Source of the DNA: a virus
Taxonomy: Duplodnaviria > Heunggongvirae > Uroviricota > Caudoviricetes
DNA: 18,695 nucleotides
IMG/VR virus record: IMGVR_UViG_2609459839_000004
Direction: 5' to 3' (one strand)
Below, piece after piece: positions 7,494-7,743 of this stretch. Positions within the stretch are counted from its first letter, which is position 1, and every line of letters starts with the position of its first letter. Position numbers and translations under genes: made by a program. A model generated the notes under the pieces. The model was not told the DNA's origin and made no database searches. It saw nothing but the letters and a program-made list of their open reading frames with translations.

Positions 7494-7569
7494 GGCCCTT
7501 TAGCTCAGTGGTGAGAGCGAGCGACTCATAATCGCCAGGTCGCTGGTTCAAATCCAGCAAGGGCCACCA
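7494..7569 (+). tRNA. tRNA with CAU anticodon, most likely tRNA-Ile2 (lysidine-type, reads AUA)
   Basis: Cloverleaf: acceptor GGCCCTT/AAGGGCC, D-arm GCTC-AGTGGTGA-GAGC, anticodon loop CTCATAA, T-arm GCTGG-TTCAAAT-CCAGC, encoded CCA. Resembles ileX more than elongator Met as recalled; CAU alone cannot separate Ile2 from Met. Confidence 0.8.
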
Positions 7570-7576
7570 TCACATA

Positions 7577-7653
7577 CCGCCATTAGCTCATCAGGAAAGA
7601 GCGCCAGCTTTCGAAGCTGGTTGCGCGGAGTTCGGGTCCCCGAAGGCGGTCCA
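7577..7653 (+). tRNA. tRNA-Arg(UCG)-like, non-canonical; possibly degenerate
   Basis: Anticodon stem-loop CCAGC-TTTCGAA-GCTGG gives anticodon UCG; D-arm GCTC...GAGC; acceptor starts with C and has one mismatch, T-stem has one mismatch, T-loop TTCGGGT lacks the usual A58. Boundaries approximate. Confidence 0.5.
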
Positions 7654-7666
7654 TTATCTGTATCCT

Positions 7667-7743
7667 GCGTTGTTAGCTCAGCCGGACAGAGCAATTGCCT
7701 TCTAAGCAATCGGTCACTGGTTCGAATCCAGTACAACGCGCCA
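7667..7743 (+). tRNA. tRNA-Arg(UCU), argU-like, reads AGA/AGG
   Basis: Acceptor GCGTTGT/ACAACGC, anticodon loop CTTCTAA (UCU), T-arm ACTGG-TTCGAAT-CCAGT, encoded CCA. Confidence 0.85.

Follow-up and report, generated by a model that had tools for sequence, protein, structure and literature searches.

Phages of the 933W type that carry the Shiga toxin 2 genes (Stx2 phages) also carry three tRNA genes (PMC4631060), and in other lambdoid phages tRNA genes are likewise found downstream of the late antiterminator gene Q (PMC3636060). The 933W record (NC_000924) lists, downstream of Q, pR' and qut, a series of features consisting of pT, ileZ, argN, argO, a rho-independent terminator, stxA2 and stxB2. 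This annotated GenBank record, together with the secondary papers PMC4631060 and PMC7946995, is the basis for every comparison with 933W made below. The present analysis concerns a tRNA cluster at positions 7494-7743 of an 18,695-nucleotide stretch of viral DNA (IMG/VR record IMGVR_UViG_2609459839_000004), the whole of which is referred to as the window. On sequence comparison the cluster is the pT-ileZ-argN-argO-terminator unit of Stx-type lambdoid phages, an element that is already known, and the window is a defective, Qin-like lambdoid, non-Stx prophage of Escherichia coli. Its closest match among 5426 complete E. coli genomes was strain E275 a, with 99.7% identity over 91% of the window.

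The tRNA unit, its putative promoter and its terminator

The tRNA genes that ARAGORN recognized in the window number exactly three; they lie in tandem on the plus strand in the order CAU, UCG, UCU, with spacers of 7 to 13 nt. Rfam (RF00005) placed them at exactly the same coordinates, scoring 72.5, 42.9 and 70.1 bits where the gathering score is 29 (E = 2e-14, 3e-6 and 9e-14), and CCA ends are encoded in all three. The presence of three tRNA genes is real and far beyond chance. An earlier note on this DNA, made from the letters alone, had described three tandem tRNAs here, had read their anticodons as CAU, UCG-like and UCU, and had named tRNA prediction as one check; ARAGORN found all three loci and returned the anticodons CAT, TCG and TCT (as DNA).

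The first gene, ileZ (7494-7569, plus strand), has the anticodon CAU and was labelled a methionine tRNA by ARAGORN. This label was rejected on account of 89% identity (68/76) to ileX of E. coli K-12 and an acceptor stem of the ileX type. Its ileX-like body, with identical positions 1-5 and 68-72, the same anticodon loop and the retention of the acceptor pairs C4-G69 and C5-G68, which we take to be the TilS determinants of tRNA-Ile2, together identify it by sequence as a tRNA-Ile2, which would need lysidine in order to read AUA. The gene is labelled tRNA-Ile by PGAP in E275 a and ileZ in the records of phages Stx2a_1447 and 933W. The third gene, argO (7667-7743, plus strand), is a tRNA-Arg(UCU) for AGA/AGG with a canonical cloverleaf. 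K-12 possesses counterparts of both, namely ileX and ileY (tRNA-Ile2, CAU) and argU (UCU), with the same anticodons and anticodon loops; beyond the anticodon loop, argU and argO have only the conserved core in common. To our knowledge K-12 has no tRNA-Arg(UCG) that would correspond to the middle gene, argN (7577-7653, plus strand), which is assigned to CGA/CGG.

Conservation was surveyed in 124 ileZ-containing segments, made up of 120 IMG/VR loci and four reference loci. The window allele of ileZ was present in 109 of 118 sampled copies, a count in which 37 of the 76 nt were set by the search pattern. For argO the window allele, which has no stem mismatch and keeps A58, was the commonest (40/96 copies), and across the loci 85 of 90 copies were without mismatch and had A58. 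Both sequences are under strong conservation. In the 933W argO (L128 2296-2372) position 37 of the anticodon loop is G (CTTCTGA), a variant shared by three of the 96 copies sampled; the window, like most other copies, has A there (CTTCTAA).

Directly ahead of ileZ, a putative sigma-70 promoter of the pT type occupies 7456-7484 on the plus strand and consists of TTGCAG (7456-7461), a 17-nt spacer and TATTAT (7479-7484); transcription from it is predicted to start 2-3 nt before mature ileZ. The description of this promoter as near-consensus in the earlier note was too generous, given that the hexamers agree with the consensus at 8 of 12 positions and that a consensus promoter scan listed none upstream of ileZ. 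The sequence is nevertheless the homologue of the 933W feature annotated as 'pT; putative tRNA promoter', with which 7456-7484 aligns base for base. The 60 nt ahead of ileZ were compared in 122 copies, which represented 39 distinct variants; TTG and TATTAT were in register in 31 of the variants and shifted by 1 nt in most of the others. Further upstream at least four unrelated contexts were distinguished (the 3' end of a methylase gene, a terminator after Q and two others). Since the homology between contexts starts at the -35 element, the putative promoter is part of the tRNA cassette itself. It is this conservation across contexts and the homology to annotated pT, not a match to the consensus, that lead us to regard 7456-7484 as the probable promoter of the unit.

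At the other end, the terminator scan placed an intrinsic terminator at 7758-7782 (plus strand), formed by a stem-loop at 7758-7775 and a run of seven T. Its fold has a z-score of -3.97, and the homologous terminator of 933W is annotated ahead of stx. The conserved, predicted sigma-70-type promoter, the three tRNA genes and the intrinsic terminator make up a self-contained cassette.

Every testable defining feature of the 933W-type unit was found in the window, that is, gene order, homology, pT, terminator and location between Q and the lysis genes. The two units have 90% mean column identity (the alignment behind this figure takes in unaligned 933W flank), and they agree in order, anticodons, the TTGCAG-17-TATTAT promoter, the terminator after argO and also in spacing, the spacer differing by just 2 nt. 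The identification with ileZ-argN-argO of Stx phages, offered in the earlier note, is borne out by this figure and by 89% identity to Stx2a phages. The window differs from 933W in having no stxAB after the terminator, in its degenerate argN and in a Q of a different type (PF06323). The units also differ in their distance from Q, which is about 0.4 kb in 933W and 3.3 kb in the window, where a kinase, a phosphatase, a small open reading frame (ORF) and a methylase gene intervene; 'Q-proximal', as the cluster had been called, does not describe it well.

Phages of the Stx2a_1447/WGPS2 type (AP012536) and phiP27 have in common with the window a methylase-ileZ-argN-argO-terminator block at 89-90% identity. 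The similarity to Stx2a phages amounts to 89% over 1.5 kb, upstream DNA methylase included, and the ileZ copies of the window and Stx2a_1447 are identical. The same methyltransferase gene precedes ileZ in Stx2a_1447 and phiP27, as it does in many Stx2 phages. Non-Stx lambdoid prophages such as those of E275 a and of the O157:H7 strain PV15-279 (at 1.168 Mb) have the same trio with an identical argN, no stx, and an STnc100/pseudogene region afterwards. E275 a is 100% identical over 7380-9050 and has an extra IS2 upstream. The PV15-279 unit has a helix-turn-helix gene upstream and a SASA esterase gene downstream, where the window has a gene of the IraM family.

The sole mildly unexpected item in the locus is argN, a degenerate yet widely retained gene in an unstable slot. 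In the window copy the acceptor stem is interrupted by an A6.A67 mismatch and the T stem by an A.C mismatch, and the T loop has G for the conserved A58, so that the fully paired stems and the A58 expected of a functional elongator tRNA are lacking. Although over the gathering score, the Rfam score of this copy falls short of the 55.9 bits of the Stx2a_1447 copy, and its lowest-energy structure is something other than a cloverleaf (-29 vs -36 kcal/mol). This argN is probably impaired, a poor tRNA that would contribute little. The possibility that it reflects a private mutation of one strain was rejected, the exact allele being present in 560 of the 5426 complete genomes; for the same reason the allele is considered old and widespread. 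In the sampled loci 34 argN alleles were found in 64 copies, compared with the near invariance of ileZ and argO, and 18 of 63 full-length copies had the degenerate pattern of the window. Other occupants of the slot were also observed: one copy with an argN body and a UCU anticodon, 17 copies in which an argN-like body with C at position 33 was called tRNA-Lys(UUU), and, at other loci, Thr(UGU) or Gly(UCC) tRNAs after ileZ.

The simplest reading of the argN variation is relaxed constraint, since other tRNAs of the host already serve CGA and CGG. There is a slight chance that the slot serves as a non-decoder instead, for example as a toxin decoy or a source of regulatory fragments, a suggestion that arises from the odd structure, its retention in 560 genomes nonetheless, and a variability far above that of the neighbouring genes.

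The stx site downstream of the unit

No stx genes were detected in the window by tblastn with Stx2A and Stx2B (best E = 0.76), in agreement with the earlier note as regards the region downstream of the tRNAs. The stxA and stxB genes that define a Stx-converting prophage are accordingly missing from it. Nor was any stx remnant or scar seen in the window, to which the stx-region DNA of Stx2a_1447 matches by its two flanks only (7744-7785 at 90% and 7785-7817 at 85%). In Stx2a_1447 the same STnc100 small RNA element as in the window lies downstream, just 3' of stx2B, but a 1331-bp segment with stx2AB separates it from the tRNA terminator. The blocks that flank this segment abut at 7785 in the window, which indicates a clean and empty site. 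This empty moron (stx) insertion site was mapped, without strand, to 7783-7817, where the tRNA terminator block and the STnc100 block meet at about 7785. The comparison with Stx phage genomes that the earlier note had called for therefore gives a homologous unit together with a vacant stx2AB slot.

The wording of that note implied that the lack of stx was an oddity. It is not, as the stx-less arrangement is the commonest one. About a fifth of the complete E. coli genomes (1095/5426) hold 7380-9050 contiguously and without stx. Among the sampled loci, 93 were informative, having at least 1.5 kb downstream, and stx was found in eight of them, the Stx2a_1447 reference included. Most units are without stx, and this is their ordinary state.

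The gap between argO and STnc100 was surveyed in the 71 segments that have both. It measured about 44 nt, as in the window, in 22 segments and 70-100 nt in seven. In 31 it was 580-790 nt long and contained a 108-aa ORF or a TerB-like ORF, while three had gaps of 1090-1390 nt without stx (e.g. with a 311-aa methyltransferase-like ORF) and eight had stx2AB in gaps of about 1290-1370 nt. The inserts seen at this site elsewhere comprise a 106-108-aa ORF (MVFSALNIYH...), a TerB/TciA-like 143-aa ORF, the 311-aa methyltransferase-like ORF and stx2AB. The spot 3' of the tRNA terminator is a polymorphic moron insertion point, and the window represents its unoccupied form. In O157 prophages a moron site with small RNAs at it has been described downstream of PR' (PMC4104026).

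Codon use and the likely role of the unit

Codon use was compared between two groups of genes fixed beforehand, the AT-rich cargo (kinase, PP2C, IraM, DUF1398 and YlcI; 830 codons) and the prophage backbone (3279 codons), with 42 annotated core genes of K-12 (14,790 codons from a 50-kb sample) as the baseline. Per 1000 codons, AUA was used 26.5 times in the cargo, 8.8 times in the backbone and 2.4 times in the K-12 core, with corresponding values of 30.1, 14.3 and 1.9 for AGA+AGG and of 7.2, 20.4 and 6.2 for CGA+CGG. The cargo exceeds the K-12 sample 11-fold in AUA and 16-fold in AGA/AGG, and the backbone exceeds it 3.7-fold in AUA, 7.7-fold in AGA/AGG and 3.4-fold in CGA+CGG. Cargo and backbone differ from each other (p = 2e-4 for AUA, 4e-3 for AGA/AGG), as do backbone and K-12 (p = 8e-7 and 2e-17, respectively). 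In stx2AB, AUA reaches 36.8 per 1000. The kinase and PP2C genes, the cargo pair that includes the kinase whose codons the earlier note had pointed to, have a G+C content (GC) of 38-40% and together hold 12 AUA and 15 AGA/AGG in 501 codons.

The earlier note had expected the codons matching the tRNAs to be enriched in the cargo genes relative to the backbone. This holds for AUA and AGA/AGG in the AT-rich cargo, but the backbone is enriched over K-12 as well, and the codons read by argN (CGA/CGG) are enriched in the backbone only. The codon match is not specific to the cargo; codons that ileZ and argO read are over-used throughout the prophage.

Codon compensation is the standard explanation for phage tRNAs (PMC7946995, PMC3636060) and has been applied to the tRNAs of Stx2 phages in particular (PMC7946995). 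The best explanation of the present locus, and one that we hold to be very probable, is that a standard pT-ileZ-argN-argO-terminator unit in the Q-lysis zone of a defective non-Stx prophage supplies scarce decoders. In the lysogen the tRNAs would be transcribed from pT. After induction, genome amplification and Q-antiterminated read-through could raise their amount, Q-modified polymerase passing the terminators at 4225, 7758 and 7977. Host enzymes would process the tRNAs, and host TilS would place lysidine on ileZ so that AUA can be read, with argO reading AGA/AGG. The scarcest host decoders would in this way be supplied by ileZ and argO, easing the shortage for AUA and AGA/AGG in AT-rich acquired genes and phage genes alike, with argN, structurally degenerate in the window, probably adding little. 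Because these codons are over-used 4- to 16-fold in backbone and cargo, any such relief would be general to horizontally acquired genes rather than specific to the cargo.

Several points weigh against this explanation. The enrichment of AUA and AGA in the cargo is partly automatic from low GC (32-45%), and in a published comparison lambdoid phages with and without these tRNAs did not differ in codon adaptation (PMC4631060). Promoter activity and tRNA function are read from sequence, one of the three genes is a degenerate copy, and with the prophage defective a benefit to the translation of phage late genes is moot here.

Some of the same facts could be accommodated if the unit were a neutral passenger without present function, kept in a conserved but recombination-prone block of a decaying prophage. 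The loss of essential morphogenesis genes, the presence of an insertion sequence (IS) element, the two stem mismatches and G58 of argN, and the equal codon adaptation just cited would all fit. We regard this as unlikely, if worth some weight, for a passenger would not be expected to keep ileZ and argO canonical (109/118 identical copies of the former, 85/90 of the latter without mismatch and with A58) while argN and the flanks vary freely, or to conserve the pT hexamers and the terminator across unrelated contexts, or to occur in roughly one in five complete E. coli genomes. It is also rather improbable that the window derives from a Stx phage that once had stxAB at 7785, either deleting it precisely or losing it through recombination with a relative devoid of stx. 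In favour of such a history, the sequences on either side of the site show 85-90% identity to the flanks of stx2AB in Stx2a_1447, and many Stx2 phages have the methylase-tRNA block. It would, however, have had to leave neither remnant nor scar in the window, and at only about 89% identity to Stx phages the flanks do not suggest recent derivation. Moreover, the 44-nt empty gap recurs in 22/71 loci and the inserts at the site are several and unrelated, for which reasons the empty form looks basal.

Where defence systems cleave tRNAs, phage tRNAs can restore translation. A role in counter-defence, in which the tRNAs replace or decoy host tRNAs cut by anticodon nucleases or toxins (e.g. of the colicin D type acting on tRNA-Arg), might account for the unusual variability of the argN slot (34 alleles in 64 copies) and for its changes of anticodon at some loci. 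The argN variation resembles decay, however, with stem mismatches and loss of A58 instead of compensated change, and ileZ and argO are nearly invariant and not diversifying. No nuclease is known for this role and none was found here, and the tRNA set matches exactly the rarest codon classes of the host, which are over-used in the prophage. Counter-defence is accordingly the least probable of these accounts, and hardly to be expected.

Prophage setting and significance of the site

The gene order of the window was read from the RefSeq annotation of E275 a, Pfam and NCBIfam. It starts with an IS3-family element, a hokD-like gene, DUF968, RusA, Q, an intrinsic terminator, a Ser/Thr kinase, a PP2C phosphatase and a small ORF. 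These are followed by an N6/N4 DNA methyltransferase, the three tRNAs, their terminator, STnc100, IraM on the minus strand, DUF1737, holin, YdfR, lysozyme and Rz. The IS3-family element (1-1370, plus strand) lies at the left edge of the window, and its orfA (1-522) and orfB (519-1370) overlap as in programmed frameshifting. AGA/AGG is frequent in its genes, too (17 in 456 codons), and E275 a has a different neighbour at this position. The hokD-like ORF (1444-1626) adjoins it.

The late antiterminator gene Q (3489-4178, plus strand; Pfam PF06323, 4e-84, and so annotated in E275 a) marks the start of the zone, extending to the lysis genes, in which the tRNA unit is located. An intrinsic terminator with eight pairs and a T run was listed 3' of Q by the terminator scan (4225-4246, plus strand). 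A candidate for the late promoter pR' was recognized by eye at 4162-4190 (plus strand), overlapping the end of Q, with TTGCAA (4162-4167), 17 nt and TACATT (4185-4190); no tool placed pR', the scan of this region listing the terminator only. The -10-like elements GATATT and TATAGT follow it before the terminator is reached. In 933W a terminator is annotated after Q along with pR' and qut, and the layout at 4162-4246 of the window resembles that arrangement.

Two AT-rich cargo genes follow, a eukaryotic-type Ser/Thr kinase (4323-5087, plus strand; PF00069, 2e-33) and a PP2C phosphatase (5084-5827, plus strand; PF13672, 2e-14), which overlap by 4 nt. The kinase shows weak similarity to the defence-system kinases MADS6 and PglW in NCBIfam, far under their cut-offs. 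The IS2 of E275 a lies after this pair, and the window is without it. The N6/N4 DNA methyltransferase gene (6395-7444, plus strand; PF01555, 1e-44) stands directly upstream of pT.

Downstream of the unit, Rfam recognized a 190-nt prophage small RNA element of the STnc100 family (7818-8007, plus strand; RF02076, 132.4 bits against a gathering score of 47, model positions 1-206), with its own terminator at 7977-7998. This element, between the tRNAs and the minus-strand ORF, had escaped the earlier note. No promoter was identified for it, and a permissive Rfam search of 7700-8500 gave no anti-sRNAs (antagonists of small RNAs) of the AgvB/AsxR type at E <= 1. Phage vB_EcoS-640R1 has two STnc100 copies. 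The AT-rich stretch with a minus-strand ORF that had been noticed earlier corresponds to 8033-8368 (34.5% GC), which encodes an anti-adapter of the IraM family; NCBIfam NF007393 matched it over its full length with 162 bits against a cut-off of 121, and E275 a is annotated likewise. Pfam gave no match for this ORF or for the small ORFs of the window, the IraM identification coming from NCBIfam. AUA accounts for six of the 13 Ile codons of the gene. IraM homologues stabilise RpoS in K-12.

The lysis genes holin, lysozyme and Rz begin at 9125, which places the tRNA unit between Q and the lysis cassette. The first of them, a class II holin gene (9125-9340, plus strand), was taken from the ORF list and from the annotation of the 100%-identical E275 a region, and it ends the moron zone between Q and lysis. 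AT-rich minus-strand morons were also observed inside the late region at 11303-12004, namely a DUF1398 gene (31.7% GC) and a YlcI/YnfO gene. The morphogenesis region (12327-18166) has many deletions relative to E275 a. Immediately after the small terminase gene lies a C-terminal fragment of an S49 protease gene (12809-13201), and then come D, E, FI, FII, Z and U, fragments of K (16374-16709) and I, and a truncated J (17528-18166). The E275 a annotation and the ORF list showed the window to lack the genes for large terminase, portal, tail tube, G/T and tape measure. With these genes missing, the prophage is defective and can no longer make virions.

The discovery value of the locus is small, as 933W has carried annotations of the unit, of the putative promoter and of the terminator since its original record, and stx-less copies occur in more than 1000 complete E. 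coli genomes. Its practical value is that of a landmark: the tRNA and STnc100 blocks bracket the exact spot that stx2AB occupies elsewhere, so that the window displays the site in its unoccupied form. The homologous flanks could in principle permit exchange of the toxin cassette by recombination.

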